Both the position numbers and the translations under genes were made by a program. From Limisphaerales bacterium (lineage in GTDB: Bacteria; Verrucomicrobiota; Verrucomicrobiia; Limisphaerales; AAA164-E04), in assembly GCA_965203425.1 (NCBI GenBank), contig OZ241891.1, positions 172,247 to 236,246 of the forward strand: a DNA stretch of 64,000 bases, given 5' to 3'. The notes under the pieces were generated by a model that was not told the origin of the DNA, did no database searches, and saw only the letters and a program-made list of their open reading frames with translations. Shown here piece by piece: positions 10,512 through 63,318 of this stretch (its first letter is position 1; each line of letters starts with the position of its first letter).

Positions 10512-10641
10512 TTTTTCTATTCTGGTTAATTGGGTAGGCTTGTGTCACTGAATGAACGGATTGATCAACGGGTTTGATTTTGTTTTGGAGGAAGTCGCGT
10601 GGAAACACCGAGTTTCCCAAGTCCGTGTTGCCGATAAAGCC

Positions 10642-12621: not shown

Positions 12622-13976
12622 ATGCAGTCCATCCCCTTGACCGTCGAACCTTCCTACGCGGACTAGGCGCCGCCGTGTCCCTGCCGCTCTTGGACGCCAT
12701 GATTCCTCTCCGCTGCTTGGCTTCCACCGCAAACCGGAATCCCGTCCGAATGGCCTTTCTATTCGTCCCTAACGGAATACACATGCCCGACTGGACGCCA
12801 AGCCGGGAAGGCCGCTACTTCGACTTGCCAAAAATTTTGCACACCATGGCGCCCGTGAAACAGGATCTCACCGTCTTAAGCGGATTGACCCATGACAAAG
12901 CCCGAGGCAACGGCGACGGTCCCGGCGATCACGCCCGTTCTGCCAGCGTCTTTTTGACCGGCGCGCAACCTCTCAAAAGCGAAGGATCGGAAATCCACGC
13001 CGGAATCTCCATCGACCAAGAAGCCGCCAAGGCTGTTGGGCGTCAAACTCGTTTTGCTTCCCTGGAACTAGGCACCGAAAAAGGCAGACAATCCGGCAAA
13101 TGCGACTCCGGCTACGCCTGCTCCTACTCCAACAACATCTCCTGGCGCGACGCCGCCACTCCCCTAGCCAAAGAAACCAACCCTCGCCTGCTCTTCGAGC
13201 GCCTCTTCGGCAACAACAACGCCGCTGAAAAAACTGAAAGCGCCCTCCGAAGACAACGATTCCAAAACAGCATTCTCGATTTCATCCTCGAAGACGCCAA
13301 ACGATTGAGCCGCAAAGTCGACAACAAAGACCGCGCCAAGCTGGACGAATACCTTACCGCTGTCCGCGAAATCGAACTGCGGTTAGAACGCGCCGAAAAG
13401 AATGGCAGACAACAGCGCGATAAAGCCCTCGCCGAATGGAGCACACCCGAAGGCATCCCCGACTCCTACGAAGAACACATCCGCCTTATGGGAGACATGA
13501 TGATCCTCGCCTTCCAAACCGATGCCTCTCGCATCGCCACCTTCATGCTCGCCAACGAAGGAAGCAACAAAAGCTACCGCTTCATCGGCGTCCACGAAGG
13601 CCATCACTCGCTCTCCCATCACCAAAACGATCCCGCAAAACAGCGAAAAATCAGCGACATCAACCAGTTTCACGCCCGCCAAGTCTCCTACATTCTGCAA
13701 CGCCTCAAATCCATCCCCGAAGGAAATGGCAGCCTTCTGGATAACTGCATGATCCTCTACGGCGCCGGAATCAGCGACGGCAACCGCCACAACAACGAAA
13801 ACCTCCCCATCCTCCTCGCCGGCAAAGCCGGCGGCGCCCTCCAGCCCGGTCGTCACCTTCGTTACCACTTTGAAACCCCGATGGCCAATCTCTACCTCTC
13901 CATGCTGGATCAACTCGGCGTCCGCAAAGACCGCTTTGGCGACAGCACGGGCCGCCTCCCCGGATTGTTTATCTAA
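12618..13976 (+). CDS. DUF1552 domain protein (Tat signal), partner of the DUF1592-family protein
   Basis: Twin-arginine signal DRRTFLRGLGAAVSLPLL, plus GDGPGDHARS and HHSLSHHQND motifs. It shows the canonical pairing with the upstream gene. Confidence 0.8.
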   Translation: MNAVHPLDRRTFLRGLGAAVSLPLLDAMIPLRCLASTANRNPVRMAFLFVPNGIHMPDWTPSREGRYFDLPKILHTMAPVKQDLTVLSGLTHDKARGNGDGPGDHARSASVFLTGAQPLKSEGSEIHAGISIDQEAAKAVGRQTRFASLELGTEKGRQSGKCDSGYACSYSNNISWRDAATPLAKETNPRLLFERLFGNNNAAEKTESALRRQRFQNSILDFILEDAKRLSRKVDNKDRAKLDEYLTAVREIELRLERAEKNGRQQRDKALAEWSTPEGIPDSYEEHIRLMGDMMILAFQTDASRIATFMLANEGSNKSYRFIGVHEGHHSLSHHQNDPAKQRKISDINQFHARQVSYILQRLKSIPEGNGSLLDNCMILYGAGISDGNRHNNENLPILLAGKAGGALQPGRHLRYHFETPMANLYLSMLDQLGVRKDRFGDSTGRLPGLFI

Positions 13977-14042
13977 CGCAAAAACCGCCGAACGCCGAGT
14001 AGCCAACCAAGCCCAAAAGGAAGAAATCCTCGAAGGAAAACG

Positions 14043-32066: not shown

Positions 32067-33452
32067 TTAATTTTGAGCGTCGAGTCGTTTTTGCAGGGCA
32101 TCCAAATAGTTGCGGATGTTGGGGTTGGATTGGATTTGCTCGGCTTCGCGCAGGTATTGGACAGCTTGGGGAAGGTCTCCTTTGGCAACGGAAGTTTGGC
32201 CGAGGGCGACAAGGGCTTGGTGGCGAAAGCCGGGCGCAGACAAAGCGCGTTCAAAGGCAAAGGCGGCTTGTTCGTAGTCGGCGTTGGCGTGGTTGTATTC
32301 GCCAAGGAGAAGCCAAGCATCGCCGTTGAGGGGGTCTTTCTTGACGGCGTCTTGGAGTTGGTCAACGGCTTTTTGCGGATCGCCGAGTTCCATATCGATT
32401 TTGGCTTGGGCAAGTTGGATGCGGTTTTGGCTTTCGTCGGTTGGCGGCGGGTTTTGGCCTTGCTGGAGCCTGTTGAGATAATCGCGGGCTTCTGGGTAAA
32501 GACGGCGGTCGAGCAGTTGGTCGAGAGGTTTGATCAGAGATTTCCAGTTTGAGGAGCGTTTTTCGCCGTTGAGCGCGCGCAAGTAGGCGTTTAGGGCTTG
32601 GCGCGGGACGTCTTCGCTGAGGTAAAGGTCTCCCAGCAAGGCAAGCGCGCTCCAGTCGGTTTGGTTTTGCTGGAGGTCTGCGGCGATTTCGAGGTTGGCG
32701 ATGGCTTTGGCGCGTTGGCCGTCGGCCAGAAAGCCGTTGGCCTGCATCAGCCAGAAGTCGGCGGTTTCGGGCTGTTCGGCGATGAGTTCGTCAAAGAGGG
32801 CCAGGGCGGCTTGGGTTTGGTGAGTGAAGAGGAGGCAGTGAGCTTGGCCGCGGCGGAAGTCGACGCTGTCGGGTTTGAACATTCTGGCCATTCGGTAGGC
32901 GGCGAGGCCGGATTCGTATTTCTCGCCGATGAGATAGGCGTAGCCAAGGAGTCCGTAGCTTTGGGCATCGCCGCCGCCAAGCCGAATGACGGTCAAGAGC
33001 GGTTGGATGGCTTGGGCAAATTGGCTTCGCTGGATGTGGATTAAGGCAAGCGTGCGGTGGGCGCGTCGAAAGGAGGGAAGTTTTTTGACGGCTTGGCGCA
33101 AGTGTTTTTCGGCATTGTCGTAGTCGTTGACTTGGTAATAGAGATTGCCAAGGAGAAAAGAGAAGGCCGGGTTGCTGTCGGGCTTGAGTTTGGCCAGGAC
33201 GATTTGGATGGCTTGGCGCGGTTGGGAGCGGAGAAAGGGAAGCGCTTGTTCGTAAAGGGGACGATCTTGGGCGGTGAGTTTGGGTTCGATGGCTTCGTTG
33301 ACACCGTAGGAAGCGAGGAAGCGGTTGCGGAATTCCGGGCTGTCGGGGTCAGAATCGGCTAATGGAAAGGGCGCAGCGCATAAGGCGGCGGTTGTCGCCG
33401 CAAGGAAAAAGCTGCAAAGGAAGGTTTTCTTCATGGCGTTGGCAGATTGCAT
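32067..33452 (-). CDS. Periplasmic TPR-repeat protein (TtpD-like component of TonB2-type clusters)
   Basis: Signal peptide, then multiple TPR units (e.g. AWLLLGEYNHANADYEQAAFAFERAL). Position is immediately after tonB. Confidence 0.75.
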   Translation of the reverse strand: MQSANAMKKTFLCSFFLAATTAALCAAPFPLADSDPDSPEFRNRFLASYGVNEAIEPKLTAQDRPLYEQALPFLRSQPRQAIQIVLAKLKPDSNPAFSFLLGNLYYQVNDYDNAEKHLRQAVKKLPSFRRAHRTLALIHIQRSQFAQAIQPLLTVIRLGGGDAQSYGLLGYAYLIGEKYESGLAAYRMARMFKPDSVDFRRGQAHCLLFTHQTQAALALFDELIAEQPETADFWLMQANGFLADGQRAKAIANLEIAADLQQNQTDWSALALLGDLYLSEDVPRQALNAYLRALNGEKRSSNWKSLIKPLDQLLDRRLYPEARDYLNRLQQGQNPPPTDESQNRIQLAQAKIDMELGDPQKAVDQLQDAVKKDPLNGDAWLLLGEYNHANADYEQAAFAFERALSAPGFRHQALVALGQTSVAKGDLPQAVQYLREAEQIQSNPNIRNYLDALQKRLDAQN

Positions 33453-34132
33453 TAGTGCGGAGCTTGCAGGGTAAGAGGAAACTTGGCGCGCACTTTGACG
33501 GGTTGACCGTCGACTTTGGTGATGGTAAAGCGCAAAAGATTTCCAAGACGACGGGCTTCCTGATCCAGCTTGGAATGGGAATGGGAAGAAGCGAGGATTT
33601 TTTGGAAGCGGGCTTTGCCTTTTTGGTCGATGAGGATTTCTAGGGTGAGTTTGACTTCTTTGACACCGCGTCGTTCTAGTTCGCGCGGGAAATCGGGTTT
33701 GATCATGCGGCCGTTGATGAGGTCGGGAGGCCGTTCTAGTTCGGCAAAGTCAAAAATTTTCTCAATGTCGCCGATGGCGTCCACATTGACTTCAAAGGCT
33801 CCGGCCTGAACGCCCATAGAAAGGGCTTCGCCGACGCCGGGATTGAGGGAAAGTTCTAGTTGGCTGAGTTCCAGTTCGGGTGGTTCAGGTTCCAGTTCGG
33901 GAATTTTGTCCGGCGTTTTTTCGATCTGGCGTTTTTCTTCGATGACTGGGGGCTTGGGCGGAGTCAAGACAACGGGCTCTACTTCACGGAGGATTACGGT
34001 TTGAATGTCGCTGTCTTGGAGCGCTTGGCTGATGGGGATGATGAGAAAGAGGAGCGCGGCCAAGAAGACGGCGCCGGCCAAGGCCAAAAGGCCAGTCAGA
34101 TTGCGATTGGGTTGAGGCAGTTGGACGGGCAT
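33452..34132 (-). CDS. tonB: TonB-family energy transducer
   Basis: N-terminal anchor LLALAGAVFLAALLFLII, a Pro/Glu-rich spacer (PPKPPVIEE...PELEPEPPELE) and a C-terminal TonB-like domain. Confidence 0.8.
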   Translation of the reverse strand: MPVQLPQPNRNLTGLLALAGAVFLAALLFLIIPISQALQDSDIQTVILREVEPVVLTPPKPPVIEEKRQIEKTPDKIPELEPEPPELELSQLELSLNPGVGEALSMGVQAGAFEVNVDAIGDIEKIFDFAELERPPDLINGRMIKPDFPRELERRGVKEVKLTLEILIDQKGKARFQKILASSHSHSKLDQEARRLGNLLRFTITKVDGQPVKVRAKFPLTLQAPH

Positions 34133-34539
34133 TATTGTCGAGTGGCCATGTTGATGCGCAAAGCGCCGGCTAAGGCGGCCTGATCATGCACTTTTGAGTA
34201 GATATCGAGGGTGGCCGCTTTGTCTCCCTGGACGATCACAGGCTGGTCTTTTTTCTGTTTTAGTAACCGTTTGACAACGCCGCGAACCCCGCGCACGCCG
34301 ATTTCGTTGCCTCCGTGGATGACGGTGCCGTCTGCGGTGATGGCAATCAGGATGGATTGTTTTTCGAGTTGGGAGGCGGAGGCGGCTTGCGGTCTGCGGA
34401 CTTCGACGCCGGTTTCTTCGACAAAGACGGTGGTGACAATGAAAAAGATCAGGAGAATGAAAACGATATCGATCAACGGGGAGACGTTGATTTCATCTGA
34501 ATGCGCAGGGGCGTTGAAGAGTTGACGGCGGTGTTTCAC
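34132..34539 (-). CDS. exbD: ExbD/TolR biopolymer transport protein
   Basis: INVSPLIDIVFILLIFFIV anchor and an ExbD fold pattern. GTG 34539 (VKHRRQLF) forms a GTGA overlap with the exbB stop. The annotated ATG 34632 would overlap exbB by 97 nt. Confidence 0.8.
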   Translation of the reverse strand: MKHRRQLFNAPAHSDEINVSPLIDIVFILLIFFIVTTVFVEETGVEVRRPQAASASQLEKQSILIAITADGTVIHGGNEIGVRGVRGVVKRLLKQKKDQPVIVQGDKAATLDIYSKVHDQAALAGALRINMATRQ

Positions 34540-35228
34540 GAGGGGTTGCTTTGTGTTGACGGCGGATTTTCCTTTGGCGGAAGCGGCGTTGGCGTTTGGT
34601 CTGCGTTTTCCGGTTCTTCGGGGAAGAGCCATTCGACGTGGAGCATCCAGTAGGTGTTGTAGCGTTCTAGGCGGAGAATGGCCCGCTGTAAAAGATTGCG
34701 CCGTTGGACAATCAAAGAAAGGAGAACTAAGCCGGGAATGGAAATGATCAAGCCTGTTTGCGTGGTGATTAAAGCTTCGGAAATGCCGGTCACGACGCTG
34801 TCCAGACGGGAGTTGTGGCTAGCGGCCATGCCGCTGAAGGTGGAAAGCATTCCGGTGACAGTTCCCAGCAGGCCGATCAAGGGGCCGACGGCGATGAGAA
34901 CCGCCAAGAATTTGATGCGGCGATTGACTGGCGAAAGATATTCGTTGTGGATTTCTTCAAAATGCCGCTTCACTTCGCGGGCGGTAGATGCGCCAATGTC
35001 CAGCAAGTCCCATAACACTCGCCAGCGGCCGCTAATTCGCTCGGCGATCTCTTTGTCCGACCAATCATAAACGCGGGCGCGGATGAGAAAGTGGAACTGA
35101 AGGTTCAAAAACAACTTCAGCGCGGTGTAGTAGAGTGCCACCGCCAGCAGAAAAAGCGGGATCATCAGCCAACCGCCGCTGACCCAAATCAAAGTCATGT
35201 CTTGGAAAAAGCCTTCTGAATCACTCAC
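34536..35228 (-). CDS. exbB: MotA/TolQ/ExbB proton-channel protein
   Basis: 230 aa with three TM segments and the conserved GLLGTVTGM...ALITTQTGLIISIP motif. Confidence 0.85.
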   Translation of the reverse strand: MSDSEGFFQDMTLIWVSGGWLMIPLFLLAVALYYTALKLFLNLQFHFLIRARVYDWSDKEIAERISGRWRVLWDLLDIGASTAREVKRHFEEIHNEYLSPVNRRIKFLAVLIAVGPLIGLLGTVTGMLSTFSGMAASHNSRLDSVVTGISEALITTQTGLIISIPGLVLLSLIVQRRNLLQRAILRLERYNTYWMLHVEWLFPEEPENADQTPTPLPPKENPPSTQSNPS

Positions 35229-36678
35229 GGACGCCTCCTTCGTTGGGAGATTTGGCCGCTTCGGACTGCCCGCGGGACAAGCCGTTGACGAATTCTAAGG
35301 CAAAGCGCTCCAACCGAGCCAGAACGCTGGCCGCTTTGCGGGAAAGAAGCGCATGCACAATTAGAGCCGGAATGGCCAGCACGAGGCCGAGTTCGGTTGT
35401 AATCAAAGCTTCGGAGATGCCGGAAATCAAAGGCTTGGGGTCTCCCGCGCCAAAGGCCTGCATTAACTTGAAGGTTTTGATGATGCCGGTCACAGTGCCG
35501 AGCAATCCAAGAAGGGGCGCAGTAGCGGCGGTCACGGCAATCAAGTTGAGAAAACGCTCCAGCCGAGGTTGCACGTCCAACATGGATTCATACATGACTT
35601 CCTCTACCAATTCGACCGGTTCGTTAGAATGCTCGACGCCGGCAGAGAGCAAAGAAGAGGCGGGCTGTGGTTGCTTTTGGGCTAATTCCAGAGCTTCGGT
35701 TTTCTTGCCGTCCCGCAACAGCTTGACGATTTTGCCCACTACCCAGTGTTGCGGTTGTCGGATGCTGAAGATTTGGATGCCTTTGTAAGCGCCAACCAAA
35801 GAAGAAATCAATGCAAAAAACACAATCGGCCAGACCCAAATGCCGCCCTTTTTTAGGTGTTCTCTCAAGGATTCTTTGGTTTCTCGAATTTCAATGGCGT
35901 CGCCAACGGTAGGATCCGTCGGCAAATCCCCTTTGCCATTCTGGACGATTTCAGTGATCTTTTGCCCCTGGCTTTTTTCCAAAGGGCGGATTTGCGGTTG
36001 CAAAGATCGGCTTTCATCGACCCATCCGACCGTTTCGCCTGATTCATCGGAGAAATACAAGAGCGGACCCACTTGAACAAACTGCCCATTCATCAACTGG
36101 CCTTCTCGGCTCAGAACTTGGCCGGAATACCGCTTCCCGCCGATCAAGGATTCCAACCGTTCGGCCGCCGTGCGAAGCAGGGATAAAGTTCGATCCATTT
36201 TTTCCTGATCCGTGGCTTCTTCGTTTTCCAAAAAAAGATTGAGGTCTTGAATGGACTCTCTTCGAAGCGATAACTCACCAATGGAAAGGGAAGTTTCGTA
36301 GCCGGCAATGAACTCACCCGAAAGCACTCGCGCAATATAGTCGTATTCCTTCTGCCTCTCTTCCACTTGGGACTCCATCGCCTCCAAGCTGATGCTTCGG
36401 CTATCGCGGACGGCTTGAAGTTCTCGCGCCGTTGTGCGAAGGGTTTTGACTTCTTGCTGAAGGTTGTTCCATTCCTCGGCCAGCGGCACTTGGGACTCTT
36501 GAACGGCTTCCCGCTGTTCGCTCAAACGGCGGATTGCGTCCTGCAGCTTGGCCTGTTGCCGATCAGCCAGCGCGTCCAAAGACTGCGCAGACGCACCCAA
36601 CGAAGGCGCGGCGATTAAGCAGATTGCCGCCGTTCGAAAAATCCAGATCCTCGCAAAATGACAAAAACTTCGCCTCAT
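35221..36678 (-). CDS. Large MotA/TolQ/ExbB-family protein with N-terminal periplasmic coiled-coil domain (TtpC-like)
   Basis: 485 aa. The C-terminal third carries LLGLLGTVTGIIKTF...ALITTELGLVLAIPAL. Confidence 0.8.
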   Translation of the reverse strand: MRRSFCHFARIWIFRTAAICLIAAPSLGASAQSLDALADRQQAKLQDAIRRLSEQREAVQESQVPLAEEWNNLQQEVKTLRTTARELQAVRDSRSISLEAMESQVEERQKEYDYIARVLSGEFIAGYETSLSIGELSLRRESIQDLNLFLENEEATDQEKMDRTLSLLRTAAERLESLIGGKRYSGQVLSREGQLMNGQFVQVGPLLYFSDESGETVGWVDESRSLQPQIRPLEKSQGQKITEIVQNGKGDLPTDPTVGDAIEIRETKESLREHLKKGGIWVWPIVFFALISSLVGAYKGIQIFSIRQPQHWVVGKIVKLLRDGKKTEALELAQKQPQPASSLLSAGVEHSNEPVELVEEVMYESMLDVQPRLERFLNLIAVTAATAPLLGLLGTVTGIIKTFKLMQAFGAGDPKPLISGISEALITTELGLVLAIPALIVHALLSRKAASVLARLERFALEFVNGLSRGQSEAAKSPNEGGVRE

Positions 36679-37523
36679 TCCACTTGCTTCAAACCCTGCA
36701 CCGGCAACAGCACAAACCGCGCCTCCGTCTTCTGCTCAATCATAGCAATGGCTTCTTTCACCGCTTCGGCAATCTCCGGCCGGGAAACCCAACTCCATCC
36801 TTTATCAGAAGGCACGCCAAAACCCGCATCCTCATCAGATTCGGAAAAGAAATAGGCCGATCCTAAACCCAAGTAAAGAGTCTGAACCGCTCCCACAGAA
36901 CCATCGGCCAAAGTCCGCACTTCCTCAAAAACCTGCGCGACGCCGTCAAATTTCTGAATGGCGTCCAGAATGCTGACCACGCCTTGCATTCGCGCTGCCA
37001 ATCCCTGCCGAGAGGAAGCCGCATCCTCCGGAAGGTTTTTGAAGTGACCGGCCAAAGAGTCTTGCAACGGCTGCGGCAATCGCGCTTTGAGATTGCGGAG
37101 ACGCTGCTCCATTGCGGCAAGGAATCGAAGCACGGCTTCGGCGCTGGCATCCAACTCCTGCCGCTGGGATACAAGCTCTGCCCGTTTTTGATCAGCGGCG
37201 CTGGCGGTCTGCTTGGCTTCGGCGATTTGCGCATTCAAATTCTCGCGCTCAGAGCGAGCGGAGCTAATCATATCCCGCAAAAGCCGCTCCTTTTCTTTCC
37301 ACGCAGAGGCCTCTTCGGATATCGTCTTCTCAATCGAAACCCACTGCTCAACCACGGCTCGCACACCGCCCGCGCCGCCATCCGCCGCCCTACCCGTTGG
37401 AATCGCCGCAAGCAATCCCAACAAAACAGCCGTCCGCAGATTCCTAAATGGAATCCAATACCAAATGCACTGCATCATCGCCTCCAAAAACAACCAACCG
37501 CAATTTCTTTTCCTCGCCGACAA
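36675..37523 (-). CDS. DUF3450-like coiled-coil periplasmic protein (first gene of TonB2-type cluster)
   Basis: Signal-like segment LLGLLAAIPTGRAADG followed by a long coiled coil. It has a 4-nt overlap with the next gene. The true start may be the internal MMQC. Confidence 0.6.
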   Translation of the reverse strand: MSARKRNCGWLFLEAMMQCIWYWIPFRNLRTAVLLGLLAAIPTGRAADGGAGGVRAVVEQWVSIEKTISEEASAWKEKERLLRDMISSARSERENLNAQIAEAKQTASAADQKRAELVSQRQELDASAEAVLRFLAAMEQRLRNLKARLPQPLQDSLAGHFKNLPEDAASSRQGLAARMQGVVSILDAIQKFDGVAQVFEEVRTLADGSVGAVQTLYLGLGSAYFFSESDEDAGFGVPSDKGWSWVSRPEIAEAVKEAIAMIEQKTEARFVLLPVQGLKQVE

Positions 37524-37576
37524 AGTGCACGACTCTATCCCATTCCAATTGCAGAGCCAAACTTTTTCTCCCCTTT

Positions 37577-40300
37577 CTATCGAGCGAGGTAGAACATCAT
37601 GCCCGCCGGCTCATCGCCCGCGGTCGGATCAACAAGGAACGGATTGGGCGCATCCGCTATCTCATGGAACGGGCCGTCCACTTGCTTGGCGCCGTGCAAT
37701 CTTCCTGTGTATTCGATTACGATTACGCCCTCGGTGTTGACGGACACAGAAATACTCGCAGGCTCCATCGGCGGCTCGGGAGACTCCACTTCGGGCAAAA
37801 ATTCCGTCGCACCCAACGCAATGGGAACGGTGTCATTAAACTCGCCGGTGTTGCTCAAATAGAAATCGTCCAGCCGGAAAATCCTCCCCGTTTCACTGGC
37901 GGTTAACACGGTCATGAACAAAGTGTCCAACTGCGGTTGCACGCCGCCAAGATCGACAGAGCCGGCCGGATTGCGATCCGAAACAAGGTCTTCGGCCAAC
38001 GTCTTTCGCTCGCCGCCGATTTCTTGGATATGAATGTTAAACGTGTCTCCGTCTTCAATGGATCGATTGTCCACCTCCAGCCAAACATTGTAAGTCGTGC
38101 CATATTCCAAAGCGTCGTCCGGCTCCGCAATAAAATCGAGACTACCGCCAACGCCGTTGATGGCCTTCAATTCCAAGAATCCCTCGGACTCTCCAGTATT
38201 GTCAAACTGGATGAACGGCCCCACGTCGTTGTCGAAGTCGCCGACAAATCGAATCGGCTTCTCGGACAGACCGACGTTGAAATTCAAAGTGTCGCCATCC
38301 GCGTCCGGCGTCACATACATCCGGAAAAACACAGTGGTCTGCTCGCCTTCCTCAATCGTCAACGACTTCAATTCAACAGCATTAAGCGCCTGCGCCGCGC
38401 CGAAGATTAAAGACTGACTGGGATGATTGGAATCGCTTTCCAACACTTCCGCCGCTCCCACCGGGTTCTTCCAAGAGCCAAGCCCTTTGATGCTCCCCGC
38501 CGGCCAAGCGTCAAAGTTGTCAATCAGCGTCCAACCATCGCTCACGCCGTCCAGCGCGCTGACTTTGAAATCAGCCGAAACAGAATCGCCACCGCGCTCC
38601 GCCGTCAAAGTAAAAGTCTTCGTCGCCTCAAGAGAAACCTCCTTGCTCCCCACGCCAAAAACGGAATCCGCCGTAACATCGCCCACGCCATGATTAATGC
38701 TCAAAGTAGCATCCGCGCTGGCATCCCAACGCAACACGACGGAACCATCCTTCACCACCGCCGGAAAATCAGCGACAAAACTGCGAATCACAAGCGGCTG
38801 CGTCCGAGAAAGCGATTCCGGCACGCCGCTGTCTTGGATTTCGGCGATTTCCTCCTCTGACAAAGCGCGCTTCCATATCGCCACCTCATCCAAAACCCCG
38901 TTCACCCAATGCGACGCCGACGCCCGCAATATCCCTCCAATCGATGTGTTGTTCAAAGGCCAACCCCCCTCCGCCGGCTGCGCCGCAATCTCTAACTCAT
39001 CCAAAACCCCATCGATGTAAACCGCCCGCGCCCCATTCTCCTGCACAAACACAATATGATGCCAATCCCCGTCAAACGGCTCGCCCACCGTGTAAATATG
39101 CCCCACCACCGGCCAGCCCGAACCGTTATTCCGTATGAAAATATCCAACTGATCAGAACCGCCCCCGTTGTGCGTCCCTAAGTTGAACAACGGATCGCTG
39201 TTCTCCGTGTTCCCTTCGGAAAAAATCCGCAGATCATTCTGCCCCGTGCCTTCCAACTTCGCCCAAATCGACAAAGTCCAAGACTCATGCTGATTAGCCG
39301 GCAAGTCTTCGCCCGCCTGATGCACCCGCGAAAGCAAAGTCTGCCGATCAAAGCTGAACTCAAAGGCCATCCCCGTCTGGCCGTCCACCAAGTCTTCCGC
39401 CGACAAATTCGTCAAATCCATATCATAACCGCCAATCACATCCGGCGTCTTCGTCCCTTGCACCTCATCCAACGGCCAATGCGAAACCAAACCTCTGGCC
39501 AAAGGCGAGAGTATCGAGCTCATCCCGTTGTCTTGGATTTCGGCGATTTCCTCCTCTGACAAAGCGCGCTTCCATATCGCCACCTCATCCAAAACCCCGT
39601 TCACCCAATGCGACGCCGACGCCCGCAATATCCCTCCTATCGAAGTGTTGTTCACCAGCCAATCCCCCTCCGGCTTCTCCGACAATCCCTCAATCCCATC
39701 CAACTCCCCGTCGATGTAAACCGCCCGCGCCCCATTCTCCTGCACAAACACAATATGATGCCAATCCCCGTCAAACGGCTCGCCCACCGTGTAAATATGC
39801 CCCACCACCGGCCAGCCATCTTGCCGAATATACACATCCAACTGCCCGGATGCTCCCTGATTGTGCGTCCCCAAGTTAAACAACGGATTGCTGTCCTCCG
39901 TGTTCCCCTCAGAAAAAATCCGCAGATCATTCTGCCCCGTGCCTTCCAACTTCGCCCAAATCGACAAAGTCCAAGACTCATGCTGATTAGCCGGCAAGTC
40001 TTCGCCCGCCTGATGCACCCGCGAAAGCAAAGTCTGCCGATCAAAGCTGAACTCAAAGGCCATCCCCGTCTGGCCGTCCACCAAGTCTTCCGCTGACAAA
40101 TTCGTCAAATCCATATCATAACCGCCAATCACATCCGGCGTCTTCGTCCCGCGAACTTCGTCCAACGGCCAATAAGAGACCAAGCCGTCTTTCAAGTCTT
40201 GGGCTTCCAAACGGCTCAAACCAGCCAACAAAACCAGCGCGGCAACCAACCGAGCCGCGTTCCGCGAGAAACGGGGGGGGGGGGGGGTAAAACTATGCAT
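37577..40300 (-). CDS. Secreted protein with two tandem LamG (concanavalin A-like lectin) domains plus C-terminal beta-rich region
   Basis: ATG 40300: MHSFTPPPPRFSRNAARLVAALVLLAGLSRLEAQ. Two units of about 231-233 aa follow, containing WPLDEV...LRIFSEGN...GDWHHIVFVQENGARAVYIDG...LDEVAIWKRALSEEEI. Confidence 0.8.
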   Translation of the reverse strand: MHSFTPPPPRFSRNAARLVAALVLLAGLSRLEAQDLKDGLVSYWPLDEVRGTKTPDVIGGYDMDLTNLSAEDLVDGQTGMAFEFSFDRQTLLSRVHQAGEDLPANQHESWTLSIWAKLEGTGQNDLRIFSEGNTEDSNPLFNLGTHNQGASGQLDVYIRQDGWPVVGHIYTVGEPFDGDWHHIVFVQENGARAVYIDGELDGIEGLSEKPEGDWLVNNTSIGGILRASASHWVNGVLDEVAIWKRALSEEEIAEIQDNGMSSILSPLARGLVSHWPLDEVQGTKTPDVIGGYDMDLTNLSAEDLVDGQTGMAFEFSFDRQTLLSRVHQAGEDLPANQHESWTLSIWAKLEGTGQNDLRIFSEGNTENSDPLFNLGTHNGGGSDQLDIFIRNNGSGWPVVGHIYTVGEPFDGDWHHIVFVQENGARAVYIDGVLDELEIAAQPAEGGWPLNNTSIGGILRASASHWVNGVLDEVAIWKRALSEEEIAEIQDSGVPESLSRTQPLVIRSFVADFPAVVKDGSVVLRWDASADATLSINHGVGDVTADSVFGVGSKEVSLEATKTFTLTAERGGDSVSADFKVSALDGVSDGWTLIDNFDAWPAGSIKGLGSWKNPVGAAEVLESDSNHPSQSLIFGAAQALNAVELKSLTIEEGEQTTVFFRMYVTPDADGDTLNFNVGLSEKPIRFVGDFDNDVGPFIQFDNTGESEGFLELKAINGVGGSLDFIAEPDDALEYGTTYNVWLEVDNRSIEDGDTFNIHIQEIGGERKTLAEDLVSDRNPAGSVDLGGVQPQLDTLFMTVLTASETGRIFRLDDFYLSNTGEFNDTVPIALGATEFLPEVESPEPPMEPASISVSVNTEGVIVIEYTGRLHGAKQVDGPFHEIADAPNPFLVDPTAGDEPAGMMFYLAR
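38800..40195 (-). repeat. Tandem duplication of a ~693-699-nt LamG-domain unit inside the CDS
   Basis: 38831.. matches 39530.. at an offset of 699. 39226.. matches 39919.. at an offset of 693. I see only one mismatch over roughly 260 nt (about 39226-39480 versus 39919-40170). Confidence 0.9.
40273..40287. repeat. G15 homopolymer (C15 on the coding strand) inside codons 5-10 of the LamG gene
   Basis: 15 G counted at 40273-40287. The tract encodes T-P-P-P-P-R in the signal-peptide n-region. Confidence 0.95.
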
Positions 40301-40930
40301 ATCTAAGTCTTTCTTTACTAAGTCTTTCTTCAAAATTTTCGGATTACGGGAAAGAGAAAAAACCAATCGAGCAATCCATGCAAGAAAAAAATCTAATTTT
40401 TTGGCGAAAAAAAATAAACACGCCGCCCCCATTTTGTCCTCAATGACCGCAAAATCTCCCCTGCAAGACTTTCCGCTCTCCAAAAAACAACGCGAATTCA
40501 TTTTCATTCCGACAAAAAACCGCGCCCCTTCCTTTGAAACCATAAAGCAAAAATCCCACCTCCCCGCAAAAAACAAAATCCTTCAAACAAGACCTTGGCC
40601 TCCCATCCACTTCCCGCCACTCAACGACGTCGCCATCCAACAACAGAAAACACGGAAAGCCCAGCGTTTTATGCGCCGCCAAGACGCAATCGCGGCAAAT
40701 CAGCAACGCGCGCCCTCCCAAACGATAACCCTTTTGCATCCGCAAAGGAATCAAGACCGGCATTTATCGCCCTCAACAAAACGCCAAAATGCCTCCCACT
40801 CAAGTCGAGAACCCGCGCTTTTGGAACGTTTCCTAAAAAATACTCCTTCCAACACTCTTTCCGCTCTTTCCAATTTCGATTGCCCATGAATTGCTCCTCC
40901 GGGCTGAATTGAAATCCCTTTGGCAATCCA

Positions 40931-52694: not shown

Positions 52695-53036
52695 ATGGAA
52701 GGGGAGAACATGAACGAGTGCCTAAACCGGATTGGTGGTTTGGAGAAGAGCGTCAGCTCGTTAAATGCCCGCGTTGGCAAGTTGGAGACGGTCATTGAAG
52801 AGCGGTTCCAGCATTTTGAAAAGCATTTGGAGAAAATGGAATCCAGCCTGACGGCCAAGCTCGACAAAATAGACGAAGACATTCGCGGCAACGGCAAAGA
52901 CGGCATCAACGTTCGCTTAGATCGCTTGGAAAATTCCCAGAAGTTAGCGAGCCTCTGGTTTTGGATCCTTGTCGGAGCGGCCGCTCCCGCTTTAGTGGGC
53001 ATTTATCTTTCATGGCTGGGCATCACGGTCCATTGA
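52695..53036 (+). CDS. Small tail-anchored coiled-coil protein, GNGK-motif family (XhlA-like architecture), paralog 1
   Basis: 113 aa: a coiled coil, then DEDIRGNGKDGINVRLDRLE, then the C-terminal TM LWFWILVGAAAPALVGIYLSWL. Confidence 0.55.
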   Translation: MEGENMNECLNRIGGLEKSVSSLNARVGKLETVIEERFQHFEKHLEKMESSLTAKLDKIDEDIRGNGKDGINVRLDRLENSQKLASLWFWILVGAAAPALVGIYLSWLGITVH

Positions 53037-55722: not shown

Positions 55723-56190
55723 GATGCGTCCAGCATTCTGAGCTTGCCGTGTCGTCTCTTTTTGCGTTAATTTGTCGGAAGCGACAGGTTATGGTTTGTC
55801 CCTGTCGCTCTGGATCAGGCGCAGGTGTTCAGTCTTGGATTCTACATATTCGAGAGAGCCATGGGGTTTGTTTTTGTAAGACTCTTCGTGACCTCATTCA
55901 TGATTCTTTTTCGGGCAAGGATCTGGCAACGGCGTCGCCCGTTATCCCGCAAAACGGATGCGAGAAGACGCTTTGTTCGGGGCTGGAAATCGATTTTGTG
56001 AAGAGGCTTTGGCTTCCTGATTTGTCGGCGGCTTGAGAAGAATTAGAGGAAAACCCCTCAAACCTGCAGACAAAAAATCAAAAAAGACGAATTGCTAAAA
56101 AATACTTGCGCTCTTTTGAAAATCTATTATGCTTTACAAAGTAGCTTGTTATGAGAAGATTAAAAAGCAAAAGCTAATGGCGCGTTAGTC

Positions 56191-56532
56191 ATGCCGGATT
56201 TTTTCGACAATTGGACCGTTCAAATGCGGAAAGGCATCGTGGAACTCTGCATCCTGCGATCCCTCTCTTGCGCGGAGCGGTACGGATACGACTTGGTCAA
56301 ATCCCTCGTCGTCCTTCCCGGATTGCATACAACCGAAGGAACGGTTTATCCCTTGCTTTCGAGATTGCGCTCCGGCGGATTGATACAGTCCCGTTTGGTA
56401 GAATCTTCCGAAGGGCCGGCCCGCAAATACTATTCCCTGACCGCTCACGGCCGCCGCCAACTTGAGCGGATGAACGCCTATTTGGAAACCATGTCGCAGA
56501 CTTTGAGCGACGCCAAAGAGAAAGGAACCTAA
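56191..56532 (+). CDS. PadR-family transcriptional regulator
   Basis: ERYGYDLVKSL...TEGTVYPLLSRLRSGGLIQSRLVESSEGPARKYYSLTAHGRRQLE is a canonical PadR winged helix. Confidence 0.9.
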   Translation: MPDFFDNWTVQMRKGIVELCILRSLSCAERYGYDLVKSLVVLPGLHTTEGTVYPLLSRLRSGGLIQSRLVESSEGPARKYYSLTAHGRRQLERMNAYLETMSQTLSDAKEKGT

Positions 56533-56533
56533 A

Positions 56534-59248
56534 ATGCCCCAATGGTCAAAAGAAGCCGCAAACGAGCTGGAAGCCTACTTGTCCGGCGAACGCAACGCCT
56601 TAGACAAGTCGGACGTCGACACCGATGAAGTGTTGGAAGACCTCCGCGCTCACGTCGATGAAGAAATCAAAAGCCGCAAGCTTCCAGTCGTCACTCGCAG
56701 GGATGTGTCCGAAATCCTTCGGCGCATCGGCCCCTTGGCAGGCCGGGAAGATGAGAAAACCGCGAACGGCGAGGCGCCGGACGCTTCCAAAACTCAATTC
56801 AAAACCGCGCCCGGCCCCGCTTTGGCTATTTTCGGAGTCGTCCTCCCGACAATCTCCATTGTAGTTGAACTGTGCACGCGAGCCTGCGCCAGAGCCTTTT
56901 TTGATCCGATCCCGACTTGGTGGCACGTTCTCCTGATCTCCTCTGTGCCGGCCGCCAACGCCCTTGTCATTTCCCAAATCCGCAGGGGATCGCGTTGCTG
57001 TCCCCAACTCCTTATGGCTATCAACGCAGTCGCCATAACCGTCGCCGCATTTTATGCCGTCGCGTTTGTCCCCTTGCTTTTGCCGGGGGTTGTTGCTGTC
57101 CTTTACTTCGGCTTTGGACTGCTTCCAATGGGGCCTTTGTTCGCCCTTGTCGCCGCCATTTGCTGTCGATGCCGCTTGTCGTCGTTTTTCGGAAAATTTC
57201 GCCGAACCGCTGGAGCGCAACTACTGGGCTATGCGGCCGCCATTGCCTTTCTGGGCGCTTTGGAGTTCCCCAACATTGCCGCCCGCATCGGCTTGGAACT
57301 GGCTGATTCCCAAAACCCCGCCGTGCAAACAAAAGGCGTGCGTCTTCTTCGAAGTGTTGGCAGCGAGGCAACGATGCTTCGCGCTTGTTACGAACGCCCC
57401 CGAAAATTCACCAACTTGGCCGCCTTTTTGATTTCGCCCGAAAATCCCGTTCGCCAACAGGAAGCGCGCATGATTTTCTTTCGGGTGACGGGAAAACCGT
57501 TCAACTCCGTTCCCCCTCCCCGCCTTTATTATTCCGCAGGCCGCTGGAACGCATTGGACGAGTTGGCTTGGGACTTGGACGAAGGATTAGGAGGCTCGAC
57601 GGTGGCGGGACGCGTGCGCGGTTTGGACCTCGCCGGCTCTCGGCTGGACGGCCGCATTCACGGACAAGCGGGACTCGCCTATCTGGAATGGACATTCGAG
57701 TTTGCCAATCATTCCTCTCGGCAGCGCGAAGCTCGCGCCCAAATTTTGCTCCCAACCGACGGAGTCATCTCCCGTCTTACCCTTTGGGTGAACGGAGAAG
57801 AGCGGGAAGCCGCCTTCGCTGGCCGCGCGCAAACCCGCGCCGCCTACCAAGAAGTCGCCGTGCGTCAACGGCGCGATCCCGTCCTCATCACAACCTCCGG
57901 CCCAAACCGCATCCTCATGCAATGTTTCCCCATTCCTCCTGACGGCGGCGCCATGAAAGTTCGGCTCGGCATCACCGCGCCACTGGCGATGTCCGATCTT
58001 CGCAACGGCAGAATCCCGCTCCCCAAAATTATCGAGCGCAACTTTCGCCTGCCCCCCGGCCTCGAACACGCGCTTTGGATTGAATCAGGATCCAAATTGT
58101 CCAGCCCTCTGGAAAACTTGGAACCAGGCATCATCCGAGAAAAATCCGCCAACGAAGAAACATTTAATGAAATACCGACGCTTCGCGGACAGATTGCCGA
58201 CGCCGACCTGCTCTCCAACCGCGCCGCCTTGCGCGTCCACCTTCTCGAAGCCTCCATCCGCGTCCGAACGGCCGGCCTTAACCCAAACGGATCGCAAAAT
58301 GTGGAAAAAACAGGAAACAAATCCGCCGTTATCCTACAAGAGCTGGCCGCCGAACCGCCGCTGGATATCGACCGATTAGCCATCGTCATCGACGGATCCA
58401 GCAACATGGCGACTTTCTACCCCGAAATCGCCCGAAGCCTAGCGCAACTACCGCCTTCAATCGAACTCTTCCTCATCCACGCCTCAAACGAACAAACGGT
58501 CAACAAAAACGGACGACACAGCGCAGACAAGACTATCGCCAAAGATGCCGCTGCCGCCAAAGTTCACCGCTTTCAAGCCGTTGGCGGCCAAGACAACCTC
58601 GACGGCCTCGTGCGGGCTTGGGACACCGCTTCTGCCGGAAAAAACAGCGCTGTCCTTTGGATTCACGGGCCGCAACCAGTCAACCTCAGTTCAGACGCTG
58701 CCCTTCGGCAACGTTTGGAAAGAAGCCCAGCGCATCCCCAACTGTTTGCAATCCAAACCGCCGCCGGACCCAATCGGCTTCTGGAACAACTGGCCGGCGG
58801 GGCCGTTCAATCCCTTCCTCGTTGGAACTCGCTGGAAAACGACTTGGCCGATTGGTTCCACCAACTCAGCGCCAAAACAGGTCCGTGGCGCTTCCAACGT
58901 CGCGCCGTTTCTCCGGACGCCATCCCCGACCTTGACAAAGTTCCCAAAGTCACCGATCACGTTCGCCGCCTCTACGCCGCCGATCAAATCGAAACATTAG
59001 CCTCCACAGGCGACCGCGAAAAAGCAGTGCAAATGGCCGGCCAACACCAGCTGGTCACTTCCGTTTCCGGCGCCGTCGTCTTGGAAACAAAAGAACAATT
59101 CGACCGCGCCGGACTCTCTCCCGTTGACCCTGCCGAAGTTCCCGTAATCCCGGAACCAACGAGCTGGCTTCTGCTAGGCCTCGGCCTTTGCTTGGGAATG
59201 TTGCGCCATTTTCGCCAGCGCCGCCGCGCTAACGCCTCGTTGCCGTGA
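56534..59248 (+). CDS. Multi-pass membrane protein with N-terminal DUF1700/HAAS-like module, VIT domain, vWA-like domain and C-terminal PEP-CTERM anchor
   Basis: The N-terminus is EAANELEAYL...VLEDLRAHVDEEI...DVSEILRRIGP. At least 5 TM segments lie between residues 95 and 260. The VIT-like part is LEWTFEFANHSSRQREARAQILLPTDGVISRLTLWVNGEE...YQEVA. The vWA-like part is LAIVIDGSSNM...VLWIHGPQP. The protein ends VPVIPEPTSWLLLGLGLCLGMLRHFRQRRR. Confidence 0.7.
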   Translation: MPQWSKEAANELEAYLSGERNALDKSDVDTDEVLEDLRAHVDEEIKSRKLPVVTRRDVSEILRRIGPLAGREDEKTANGEAPDASKTQFKTAPGPALAIFGVVLPTISIVVELCTRACARAFFDPIPTWWHVLLISSVPAANALVISQIRRGSRCCPQLLMAINAVAITVAAFYAVAFVPLLLPGVVAVLYFGFGLLPMGPLFALVAAICCRCRLSSFFGKFRRTAGAQLLGYAAAIAFLGALEFPNIAARIGLELADSQNPAVQTKGVRLLRSVGSEATMLRACYERPRKFTNLAAFLISPENPVRQQEARMIFFRVTGKPFNSVPPPRLYYSAGRWNALDELAWDLDEGLGGSTVAGRVRGLDLAGSRLDGRIHGQAGLAYLEWTFEFANHSSRQREARAQILLPTDGVISRLTLWVNGEEREAAFAGRAQTRAAYQEVAVRQRRDPVLITTSGPNRILMQCFPIPPDGGAMKVRLGITAPLAMSDLRNGRIPLPKIIERNFRLPPGLEHALWIESGSKLSSPLENLEPGIIREKSANEETFNEIPTLRGQIADADLLSNRAALRVHLLEASIRVRTAGLNPNGSQNVEKTGNKSAVILQELAAEPPLDIDRLAIVIDGSSNMATFYPEIARSLAQLPPSIELFLIHASNEQTVNKNGRHSADKTIAKDAAAAKVHRFQAVGGQDNLDGLVRAWDTASAGKNSAVLWIHGPQPVNLSSDAALRQRLERSPAHPQLFAIQTAAGPNRLLEQLAGGAVQSLPRWNSLENDLADWFHQLSAKTGPWRFQRRAVSPDAIPDLDKVPKVTDHVRRLYAADQIETLASTGDREKAVQMAGQHQLVTSVSGAVVLETKEQFDRAGLSPVDPAEVPVIPEPTSWLLLGLGLCLGMLRHFRQRRRANASLP

Positions 59249-59643
59249 AACCAATCCGCTTCTTCCAACTCCCAATGTTCGACCAACTTCACTGGCTTGC
59301 GGCATTGTCGCCATTGGCCGTCCCAATCGTCTTTTACAGCCTAATCGGCCACGCCGCTCTCTTGACCGGCGAATGGCCTTCCCCAAAAGGAATGCAAATG
59401 GAAGAAGCGCAAAAAGCCTCCGCTCTCTTCGGATTCCACTCCGTTATCGCCTTCCTCAGCATAATTGCGTTGAGCCTGCTGCCAATCGCCTGGCTCATCC
59501 TTCTAGATCAAGCGCGCTTATATCCCAACCTCGCCGCCTATGGAATTCGCTTTGCCGTGTTTGCCGTCAACCTAACCTTTTGCCTCTGGCTCGGCCTCGC
59601 CGATCCCGGCCAATTCCTCCGCTGGTTTCTAAACGGCTTCTAA
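59245..59643 (+). CDS. Hypothetical membrane protein
   Basis: 132 aa with four hydrophobic segments. Its start forms a 4-nt overlap with the preceding gene. Confidence 0.5.
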   Translation: MKPIRFFQLPMFDQLHWLAALSPLAVPIVFYSLIGHAALLTGEWPSPKGMQMEEAQKASALFGFHSVIAFLSIIALSLLPIAWLILLDQARLYPNLAAYGIRFAVFAVNLTFCLWLGLADPGQFLRWFLNGF

Positions 59644-60142
59644 CCCACCGCCGCAAAACCATAAATTCTACGGAGACTTCTTGGATTTCTTCTTCGCATA
59701 TTCCAAACCGTCCCCCCTGATACACATGGATGAGAGTCTGCCGCACAGAAGCGAGGGCGCGGCTGACTCGACGGCGCATATTGGAGCAGGTTGTATGCTC
59801 TTCCTCCGCCATTTTCTCGTAAGACGCGCCCTCGATGTAGCGACGATAGAGTAACCTCGTTGCGCTATCCTCCGACTGCTCCAAATACCGAACCAACCGA
59901 CGCGCCGCCGCTTCCTTCTCTTCTTGTTCCATCGCCTCGTCCGGTTGTATCGACCGAAGCGACTCAATCGACTCATCAGTCAACCGCTCCAAATCCAAAT
60001 CATCCTTCTCGCCATCGTCCGGCATCTTCGACGCCATCTCCGCCCGGAACACCACCCGCTTCTGCCGACAAACCAGCCTCCGATGCGAAGCAATCCCTAG
60101 GCGACTCGCAATCACCGACAGCCAACCGGCCAAACCAACCAA
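59567..60142 (-). pseudogene. Sigma-70/ECF-type sigma factor lacking region 2 (5'-truncated), with an aberrant C-terminal extension
   Basis: Region 4 is clear (RLLYRRYIEGASYEKMAEEEHTTCSNMRRRVSRALASVRQTL). Upstream only GWLSVIASRLGIASHRR is left before an in-frame stop at 60221-60223. An Arg-rich tail of about 45 aa overlaps the convergent gene. Confidence 0.5.
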
Positions 60143-62564: not shown

Positions 62565-62810
62565 ATGAAAGATCCAGAGATAAAAACCATTAACGAACTG
62601 AAGATTTTCATCGCCGGCGAGTTTTCCAAGATTCACAAGGACTTGAAGGAGATAAACAAGATTCTCCAAGGCAATGGGAAGGCAAGCATGGAAGTTCGAA
62701 TTGATCGTTTGGAAAAGTTAAAGAACTGGGTTTTGATAGTGGCGTCCATAGTGATAACCGCTTTGCTCGGTGGTTTCTTTGCTCATTATTTTTCGTTGTT
62801 AGAAAAATAA
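62565..62810 (+). CDS. Small tail-anchored coiled-coil protein, GNGK-motif family, paralog 2
   Basis: 81 aa: INELKIFIAGEF...LQGNGKASMEVRIDRLEKLKNW plus a TM and HYFSLLEK. Confidence 0.55.
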   Translation: MKDPEIKTINELKIFIAGEFSKIHKDLKEINKILQGNGKASMEVRIDRLEKLKNWVLIVASIVITALLGGFFAHYFSLLEK

Positions 62811-62892
62811 CGAGAGTCAGACGCTGCAGAGAAGAAGAAACCACCAACGGCGGCATCCTTGGCGATGACGCAAATTGAGGGAGGGCGAGAAA

Positions 62893-63318
62893 ATGAACTG
62901 GACAACACCATTCGCGTGGATCGGAGTCGTTTTAATCTGCGTCCATGTGAATTACATCGCCGCCGCCAAATTGCTCCAACCGCAGAAAGAAACGACCCTT
63001 GGAGAATTGAAGGTGTTCATTGCCGGGGAGTTTCAGCGGATTGACGAGCGGTTTAATCAAGTGGACGGACGGTTCGATAGGATTGAAACTGGATTGGATA
63101 AGATAGAAGGGGGTTTGAAAAAAATCGACGATGATATTCGAGGGAATGGAAAAGACAGACTCAATGTTCGGGTAGTTCGTTTGGAAAGTATTAGAAACTG
63201 GGCTCTTTGGATAACTGCGTTGGCCGTAATCCCGGTAATAACTGCTTTTCTGGGCGCTTCCTTTGTTCATTATTTCTCGAATTTAGAGAAATGGCGAAAA
63301 GCAGAATTCTCTGGCTAA
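62893..63318 (+). CDS. Small coiled-coil protein with N- and C-terminal TM segments, GNGK-motif family, paralog 3
   Basis: ATG 62893 is preceded by gagggagggcgag. The sequence reads LGELKVFIAGEF...DDDIRGNGKDRLNVRVVRLESIRNW plus a TM and HYFSNLEK. Confidence 0.55.
   Translation: MNWTTPFAWIGVVLICVHVNYIAAAKLLQPQKETTLGELKVFIAGEFQRIDERFNQVDGRFDRIETGLDKIEGGLKKIDDDIRGNGKDRLNVRVVRLESIRNWALWITALAVIPVITAFLGASFVHYFSNLEKWRKAEFSG

Follow-up and report, generated by a model that had tools for sequence, protein, structure and literature searches.

The stretch of DNA analyzed here (hereafter the window) comprises 64,000 nucleotides (nt) from a Limisphaerales bacterium of the phylum Verrucomicrobiota (contig OZ241891.1, positions 172,247 to 236,246). 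On its + strand, it contains two closely spaced open reading frames (ORFs), the first of 113 aa (56191–56532) and the second of 904 aa (56534–59248). The first is padR, encoding a PadR-family winged-helix regulator: its product matches Pfam PF03551 along residues 21–92 with 68 bits (cutoff 27; E 7e-19), and its orthologues lie 5′ of the large gene in relatives. The second encodes a large membrane protein, which is composed of an N-terminal HAAS-like module, a bundle of about five transmembrane (TM) helices, an ectodomain with VIT and vWA domains, and a C-terminal PEP-CTERM signal. Both genes probably form one signaling module, in which the sensor is itself a candidate exosortase substrate.

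The two genes are joined by the sequence TAA-A-ATG, which confirms the originally described gap of 1 nt. A Shine–Dalgarno-like AAGGAA is located 7 nt 5′ of the ATG of the 904-aa gene, within the 3′ end of padR. In relatives with 86%, 53%, and 40% identity, the same 1-nt spacing separates a 113-aa padR from the large gene, and all other neighbors differ. The orthologues of padR directly upstream are recognized by blastp with E values of 1e-39 to 1e-80. At this junction, the genes of most relatives are either separated by a few nt or overlap by 4 to 8 nt, and a spacing of 53 to 113 nt is found in three. The recurrence of this tight arrangement supports the view that padR and the large gene act as an operon-like unit. 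"Co-translation," as the original prediction termed it, is better worded as translational coupling or co-transcription.

Upstream of padR, a putative promoter is located at 56106–56133 (+), consisting of a −35-like TTGCGC (56106–56111), a 16-nt spacer, and a −10-like TATGCT (56128–56133; TATTAT at 56125–56130). Its positions are kept in close relatives, and TTGACA occurs there in more distant ones (loci L025, L035, and L037). A consensus scan did not flag this promoter, the −35 element of which is weak. The −10 element is immediately followed by an imperfect inverted repeat, TTACAAAGTAGCTTGTTA (56134–56151, +), 40 nt 5′ of the padR ATG. This putative PadR operator is conserved in relatives and occurs once in the window. 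At the same place, locus L008 carries the perfect palindrome ATAACAAG-GTAT-CTTGTTAT. With at most one mismatch, ACAAG-N4-CTTGT is found in 7 of 64 upstream regions, as opposed to 0.5% of shuffled regions, and half-sites of the CAAGGTA type are present in 30 of the 64. An inverted repeat that covers the expected transcription start has the look of an autoregulatory repressor operator, to which PadR would bind.

The N-terminal module and PadR

Residues 1–68 of the large protein (56534–56737, +) form a module of three helices (6–23, 30–47, and 55–65), followed by G66-P67, which is predicted to be cytoplasmic. The helices are present in an AlphaFold2 model, for which 40 sequences of the family were aligned (predicted local distance difference test [pLDDT] 86.5, predicted template modeling score [pTM] 0.79). 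Eighty related loci were surveyed, and their neighboring genes were clustered. Herein, padR is the direct upstream neighbor in 65 of 66 loci with the N-terminal module and in 0 of 11 loci without it (Fisher p ~2e-12), a comparison in which the module-less copies are phylogenetically clustered, mostly in Pyrinomonadaceae, and the independent events are far fewer than the counts suggest. The 66 are those module-bearing copies among the 80 loci for which the available upstream sequence permits a decision. All 11 copies without the module begin at the equivalent of residue 92–101, just before the first TM helix. Module and padR are both kept in relatives down to 35–40% identity. This pattern of joint gain and loss is the strongest evidence for reading residues 1–68 as a PadR-partner module.

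A known counterpart is the HAAS domain, which consists of three helices, has a conserved GxP kink ending the third, and is always found beside a stand-alone gene for a PadR-like winged helix-turn-helix protein (PMC11237479). HAAS is fused N-terminally to various multi-TM sensors, and the HAAS–PadR pairs are read as a means of signal transduction from the fused sensor domains and as an alternative to two-component systems (PMC11237479). The fusions listed comprise PspC, LiaI-LiaF-TM, Toastrack, FtsX/MacB, FtsW/RodA, VanZ, and uncharacterized domains with two to six TM segments (PMC11237479).

The pair in the window resembles this dyad (PF22564/DUF1700/DUF1048 superfamily) in several respects. 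A short stand-alone PadR is encoded directly 5′ of a membrane-protein gene; the N terminus of the partner is modeled as three helices, possibly with a comparable Gly/Pro kink, located before and fused to a multi-TM bundle; and both are gained and lost together. G66 is present in 37 of 40 family members and a proline at +2 in 22 of 40, with the window copy reading GP instead of GxP. Pfam HAAS matches 7 of the 40 members at E ≤ 0.01, the best with 1.5e-5, and P0015, a relative at 68% identity, has a precomputed PF22564 match. The dyad differs from the pair in the window with respect to the partner, which is here a VIT–vWA ectodomain resembling the inter-alpha-inhibitor heavy chains (ITIH) with a PEP-CTERM signal, and with respect to the HAAS score, which is here below cutoff.

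Apart from the clustering of the module-less copies, several results weigh against a plain assignment to HAAS. The large protein scores 15.3 bits with PF22564 (residues 15–67, E 0.026) and does not reach the gathering score of 27, and the Pfam scan returned no DUF1700 match. With the N-terminal model, Foldseek found no significant neighbor in the Protein Data Bank (PDB). In an exhaustive HMMER search with an N-terminal-only profile (A2), the best 150 of 694 matches all belong to the same family, with no bridge to canonical HAAS among them. Finally, locus L047 (9500–10060) contains the only module-bearing copy without padR, and another gene ends ~250 nt before it. The A2 profile also returned only same-family fragments from a word-indexed database and nothing below E 0.1 from the PDB sequences, in which 2O3L was not found.

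Two of the surveyed loci contain a second, unrelated PadR pair, namely PadR with an FtsX/MacB-type permease (L031, 1703–4757) and PadR with a 158-aa membrane protein (L074, 6320–7141). The N termini of both PadR partners share the pattern EE(L/M)RxHL...LRRFG with the window protein. The alignment of the N-terminal module with these two partners by hhalign lends weak support to a relationship (P 0.0018 and 0.04). Pfam HAAS misses both partners. Since the FtsX/MacB-type partner is among those missed, although FtsX/MacB is listed among the HAAS fusions (PMC11237479), the Pfam model is considered insensitive.

Hence, the HAAS status of the N-terminal module is based on family-level and contextual evidence and not on its Pfam score. 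The helical module that the original prediction had placed after PadR as HAAS/DUF1700-like behaves as a PadR partner throughout the survey, and its name is the part that the profiles do not confirm for the window copy. The prediction had named two outcomes that would speak against it: a mismatch of the N-terminal module with these profiles, which is formally what was found, and a failure of the C-terminal segment with PEP-CTERM models, which did not occur.

The membrane bundle and the ectodomain

The N-terminal module is connected to the membrane by a linker (aa 69–94; 56738–56815, +), which is probably disordered, with a pLDDT below 50 for residues 68–90. The subsequent membrane bundle (aa 95–257; 56816–57304, +) comprises about five TM helices according to hydropathy and the AlphaFold2 model, in line with the predicted minimum of five: 95–115, 129–151, 157–192 (kinked), 196–219, and 223–257. 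A further helix is found at the C terminus (877–901). The positive-inside rule agrees with basic clusters at 150–154 (RRGSR) and 212–224 (RCR...KFRR) as well as with an acidic segment beyond residue 244. Hence, the N terminus would be cytoplasmic, followed by five passes and a periplasmic ectodomain of ~620 residues, and the predicted topology is completed by the PEP-CTERM helix, which would cross back and place the terminal RHFRQRRR in the cytoplasm.

The ectodomain begins with a helical region (aa 258–363; 57305–57622, +; helices within 262–347 in the AlphaFold2 model), which is predicted to be periplasmic and contains the conserved motif TMLRACYERPR. Residues L272, R273, G276, C285, and Y286 are invariant in this region, for which the scans gave no family match. 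C118 (56885–56887), located in the loop between TM1 and TM2, is shared by 90% or more of the members; it is predicted to be periplasmic, as is the invariant C285 (57386–57388) in the helical region. A disulfide C118–C285 could tie the helical region to the bundle.

The helical region is followed by a VIT β-sandwich (aa 364–555; 57623–58198, +), which is recognized by Pfam PF08487 at residues 381–478 (34.7 bits, cutoff 26.5, E 2e-8) and in all 40 members. Next in order is a divergent α/β domain of the vWA type (aa 599–792; 58328–58909, +). The Pfam vWA models (PF00092/PF13768 and related ones) do not match it in the window protein, and VWA_3 matches one of 40 members (E 0.0099). The family profile, by contrast, aligns to the vWA domain of ITIH4 (residues 269–359, E 2e-5), with vvDgS opposite VIDKSGSM and GGqdN opposite GGTNI, and Foldseek also matched the AlphaFold2 model to a bacterial vWA structure (4FX5, E 1.6e-5). 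Thus, the vWA domain is genuine and divergent. The original assignment of a VIT–vWA ectodomain holds, for VIT by Pfam and for vWA by profile and fold, and fails in that the Pfam vWA models it had named do not detect the latter.

At the positions of the metal ion-dependent adhesion site (MIDAS), noncanonical and strongly conserved residues are found (aa 620–711; 58391–58666). D620 is present in 40 of 40 members, S622 in 39 of 40, and Q686 in 39 of 40 at the place of the Thr (GGQDN); H711, present in 40 of 40 on the WIHGPQP strand, was set opposite the MIDAS Asp by eye and not from an alignment. Position 624 is variable (G/S/A/N). The canonical pattern DxSxS...T...D is hence absent, and the conservation suggests an altered rather than a decayed metal or ligand site.

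The last part of the ectodomain (aa 793–870; 58910–59143, +) carries the motifs RRLYA and LVTSVSGAVVLE and aligns to ITIH4 residues 513–599, with veRLWA opposite MERLWAY and LVTPVSGAVVLE opposite FVTPLTSMVVTK. Residues 809–859 are modeled as a pair of helices, followed by one strand and another helix. The ITI_HC_C model gave no match to the window protein in the Pfam and NCBIfam scans. The VIT domain aligns to ITIH4 residues 32–124, and the top Foldseek match of the AlphaFold2 model is human ITIH1 (6FPY, E 1.5e-18, ~650 columns). Because three profile blocks align to ITIH4 and the fold matches ITIH1, the ectodomain is, as judged by profile and predicted structure, a homologue of the inter-alpha-inhibitor heavy chains.

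Compared with ITIH1–4 (PDB 6FPY and 9C4F), the order of VIT, vWA, and conserved C-terminal region is the same. A C-terminal processing site presumably follows a conserved "VTP..S..VV" strand in ITIH as in the bacterial family. ITIH proteins are secreted, lack a TM bundle, and possess the canonical MIDAS; they are processed at DPHFII and linked by an ester to chondroitin sulfate or hyaluronan. The bacterial family instead exhibits D-x-S, Gln, and His at the MIDAS positions and a PEP-CTERM signal in place of DPHFII.

The PEP-CTERM tail, exosortases, and related families

The protein ends with a PEP-CTERM signal (aa 871–904; 59144–59248 with the stop codon, +), consisting of V-I-P-E-P, a hydrophobic helix (877–901 in the AlphaFold2 model), and the basic RHFRQRRR, thus VIPEP-TSWLLLGLGLCLGML-RHFRQRRR. 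Its scores lie narrowly above the cutoffs, with 21.0 versus 20.7 for PF07589 and 18.8 versus 16 for TIGR02595. The 40 aligned members, which share only ~40% overall identity, all have V869, P870, E874, and P875, and 39 of them have P873.

The surveyed loci can be classified into three types. Type A (12 loci) consists of the genes for the VIT protein, an exosortase, and an EpsI-like protein, without HAAS and PadR. Type B (four loci: L036, L038, L061, and L073) comprises padR, the HAAS–VIT protein gene, the exosortase gene, and the EpsI-like gene. Type C (61 loci, including the window) contains only padR and the HAAS–VIT protein gene. L047 and two copies truncated at a contig edge make up the rest of the 80. 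Directly 3′ of the large gene, 16 of the 80 loci hence carry an exosortase gene, namely all 12 module-less ones and four with the module, all in other phyla. The motif VP.[IV]PEP is nearly invariant across the three types. Because of this near invariance and the adjoining exosortase in 16 of 80 loci, the tail is a credible exosortase signal, and the sorting signal proposed originally is well founded.

The downstream gene of types A and B matches Pfam Exosortase_EpsH (E 1.8e-24) and thereby belongs with the EpsH/exosortase family (PF09721, TIGR02602). The nearest NCBIfam type is Exosortase Q (XrtQ, NF012182), the cutoff of which is missed (183 versus 270 bits), making it a related but separate type. 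Eight of these cassette exosortases were aligned and show invariant Cys174, Asn216-x-x-Arg219, and His238-x-x-x-Gly242, which correspond to the Cys, N-x-x-R, and H-x-x-x-G motifs named for exosortases (PMC1569441). The gene after the exosortase encodes an EpsI-like protein of ~200 aa, in which similarity to the C-terminal portion of exosortase T is seen. The four-gene cassettes of type B (~10001–14000 in each locus) occur in Planctomycetota and unclassified metagenome-assembled genomes (MAGs), and in L061, exosortase and EpsI-like part are present in one 724-aa ORF.

The family of the large protein is broad. More than 1,400 database proteins match it, and full-length relatives (97–100% coverage) reach down to ~35–40% identity, at which every module is retained and conservation extends from end to end. 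In a scan of one genome per species, at least 581 loci, that is, species-representative genomes, encode the family, mostly in Verrucomicrobiota, with Planctomycetota, Kiritimatiellales, Chlamydiota, Acidobacteriota, and a Desulfomonile also represented. The closest among the listed relatives are Limisphaerales MAG chromosomes with 86–89% identity. An exact-protein lookup of the window protein returned no record.

Among curated families, the best NCBIfam matches stay below cutoff: TIGR04477 (XrtN-system VIT protein) with 114 versus 250, TIGR04286 (MSEP-CTERM) with 33.6 versus 150, and TIGR02921 (PEP_integral) with 20.2 versus 200. The cassette-type relatives are likewise below cutoff in these families (115–139 bits). 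All three models span 822–922 positions, have a VIT domain in the middle and an exosortase-type signal at the C terminus, and align to the VIT region of the window protein; the membrane region of L036 in addition aligns to positions 206–317 of MSEP-CTERM. As in exosortase-cargo families, the cassette-type relatives have a dedicated exosortase beside the substrate gene. The associated exosortase is nearest to XrtQ and not to XrtN or XrtK, and a PadR/HAAS front end is not implied by the family names. Thus, judged by these alignments, the family of the window protein is related to TIGR04477, TIGR04286, and TIGR02921 and a member of none; no curated NCBIfam model covers it.

A usual PEP-CTERM protein has a signal peptide and no internal TM segment, as opposed to the polytopic N terminus of the window protein. 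The absence of internal TM segments was described as the rule in the 2006 paper that defined PEP-CTERM, in which an integral-membrane family was noted as an exception (PMC1569441). The topology had been called odd in the original prediction, a view that does not stand. Since three NCBIfam families share the plan, the present family is large (at least 581 species-level genomes), and the exception was already noted in 2006, a polytopic N terminus combined with an exosortase tail is a recurring design.

Residues 595–684 of the L036 protein, within its vWA region, resemble TIGR03788, named "marine proteobacterial sortase target protein." More than one kind of sorting enzyme thus seems to have an ITIH-like VIT–vWA protein as its dedicated single substrate, namely a sortase, the exosortases implied by the family names MSEP-CTERM and XrtN-system, and the XrtQ-like type.

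Downstream of the large gene, a small membrane ORF is found on the + strand (122 aa from an ATG, 59275–59643, or 132 aa from a GTG at 59245). Homologues after the large gene are detected in closer relatives only (blastp E 1e-33 to 1e-92), and L001 and L002 have called genes at the equivalent position. Hence no broader than this clade, it may be a third operon gene. It has no family match in the Pfam and NCBIfam scans. The possibility of a degenerate exosortase was rejected, as it has no family match and no Cys, NxxR, or HxxxG motif.

The genes around the pair are unrelated to it. Upstream, they encode a DnaG primase, a tetratricopeptide repeat protein, a leucine-rich repeat protein, and an NfeD-like protein. 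On the opposite strand downstream, an ORF (59567–60142, −) encodes only region 4, the C-terminal half, of a sigma-70 factor of the extracytoplasmic function type (TIGR02937, E 7e-8, below cutoff). This ORF runs toward the small membrane ORF and overlaps its 3′ end by ~77 nt. Farther off lies an ExbB/ExbD/TonB cluster (33452–40576, −) with two DUF3450-containing genes, beside a 999-aa Laminin_G_3 protein. Exopolysaccharide genes are absent from the vicinity of the pair. The products of three paralogous small ORFs, all on the + strand (52695–53036, 62565–62810, and 62875–63318), have in common a coiled-coil segment, the motif D(E/D)DIRGNGKD...VR(L/V).RLE, and a TM helix at the C terminus. Their sole family match is a faint one to HSBP1, and a similar gene is present in the syntenic region of L001.

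Proposed mechanism and alternative explanations

The best explanation of these data, which we regard as moderately probable, is an autoregulated HAAS–PadR one-step signaling module of two genes, perhaps three in the clade, the sensor of which is an ITIH-like exosortase substrate. Herein, PadR would bind the palindrome overlapping its own transcript start and repress the operon. The 904-aa protein would insert into the membrane with the module in the cytoplasm, about five TM helices, and VIT, vWA, and ITIH-like C-terminal region as a ~620-aa ectodomain in the periplasm, from which the PEP-CTERM helix is predicted to cross back and leave the basic tail in the cytoplasm. Following the published HAAS–PadR model, the cytoplasmic module would bind or release PadR depending on the state of the ectodomain and the membrane bundle. 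Exosortase cleavage at PEP would free or transfer the C-terminal end only, since the protein would still be held in the inner membrane by its N-terminal bundle. Candidate states to be sensed are "unprocessed," "processed or attached," or that of a ligand bound at the vWA site. Because the five-TM bundle would still hold the ectodomain after a cut at PEP, its release, which had been suggested originally, is unlikely. Re-anchoring of the ectodomain C terminus, suggested alongside, may occur. Cleavage and further sorting of PEP-CTERM proteins were proposed in 2006, with no acceptor identified (PMC1569441).

The system acts like a HAAS–PadR dyad and like the dedicated exosortase-cargo families, without being filed in the curated families of either. 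The main text of PMC11237479 does not mention VIT, vWA, PEP-CTERM, exosortases, or Verrucomicrobia, and a literature search returned nothing relevant on the combination of PadR, VIT–vWA, PEP-CTERM, and exosortase. As far as this literature shows, the link of a one-step gene switch to exosortase cargo appears previously undescribed.

Among the alternatives, the one to be taken most seriously, although we consider it unlikely, regards the large protein mainly as a structural or adhesive component of the envelope. PadR and the module would then provide homeostatic feedback on the abundance or insertion of the protein without an external signal, with free cytoplasmic module titrating PadR. The core evidently works without the regulator, as HAAS and PadR are both missing from 12 of the 80 loci that code for this protein; the operator-like site, being unique in the window, fits pure autoregulation; and ITIH-like VIT–vWA proteins, to which the ectodomain is structurally matched by Foldseek, are matrix-binding modules in animals. 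These points are opposed by the retention of module and padR down to 35–40% identity and by the published reading of HAAS–PadR pairs as transducing signals from fused sensors (PMC11237479). Both readings are, however, mutually compatible.

A more doubtful alternative holds that processing of the tail has ceased in Verrucomicrobiota: the dedicated exosortase would have been lost, and the tail would serve only as a sixth TM anchor pinning both ends of the ectodomain to the inner membrane. The results in its favor in part also count against an exosortase substrate in the window. No exosortase was found in the 64 kb, neither as a many-TM candidate nor with a hidden Markov model (HMM) built from the cassette exosortases, and none is present in the available sequence of the 61 type-C loci, of which 39 have at least 5 kb downstream, so that the absence there is meaningful. 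No Verrucomicrobiota name is among the best 120 matches to the cassette exosortase profile. Only one other PEP-CTERM tail was found, with a strict regular expression, in the flanks of all fetched loci. These last two results carry little information. An unlinked exosortase serving many substrates, dozens in most cases, is, on the other hand, the norm for PEP-CTERM systems, and in Verrucomicrobiota, the exosortase would have to be encoded elsewhere, unlinked to the operon. Verrucomicrobia are reported to be very rich in PEP-CTERM proteins, 65 in V. spinosum, which occur together with exosortase (PMC1569441). The loss of processing is disfavored by the tail motif itself, with V869, P870, E874, and P875 invariant and P873 in 39 of 40 members: a plain TM anchor would not need such a motif.

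That padR lies upstream by chance or that the ORFs are annotation artifacts, for which nothing but the subthreshold HAAS score speaks, has next to no probability and is refuted by the locus survey, as 65 of 66 relatives retain the two genes, closely abutting or overlapping, surrounding genes differ in the loci with called genes, the protein is conserved over its full length, and the AlphaFold2 model is confident.

Within the preferred explanation of an autoregulated HAAS–PadR module, an analogy with the maturation of animal ITIH heavy chains leads to a bolder proposal, which must be called a long shot. The exosortase would cut after the conserved "VTPVSGAVVLE" strand at PEP and link the C terminus covalently to an envelope glycan or exopolysaccharide, creating a tether between inner membrane and matrix, the attachment state of which would be read by HAAS–PadR. 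If the proposal were true, exosortases would gain a defined single substrate, an acceptor logic, and a built-in reporter.

How exosortases act on their substrates is a long-open question, for which the family of the large protein is a less complex case. Its substrate is a single large and well-folded protein with homology to a class that, in animals, undergoes C-terminal cleavage and ester linkage to a glycan. Depending on the phylum, the substrate is accompanied by a single exosortase dedicated to it and a single EpsI-like partner, or is joined to a PadR switch via the HAAS-like module. In the type B loci L036, L038, L061, and L073, one operon holds the exosortase, its only ITIH-like substrate, and a transcriptional switch, which makes the exosortase question approachable by experiment, and the padR promoter could act as a natural reporter of exosortase activity. 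For the HAAS–PadR systems, which have so far been predicted computationally, the family would add a large extracytoplasmic type of sensor that is present in hundreds of species of Verrucomicrobiota and Planctomycetota.

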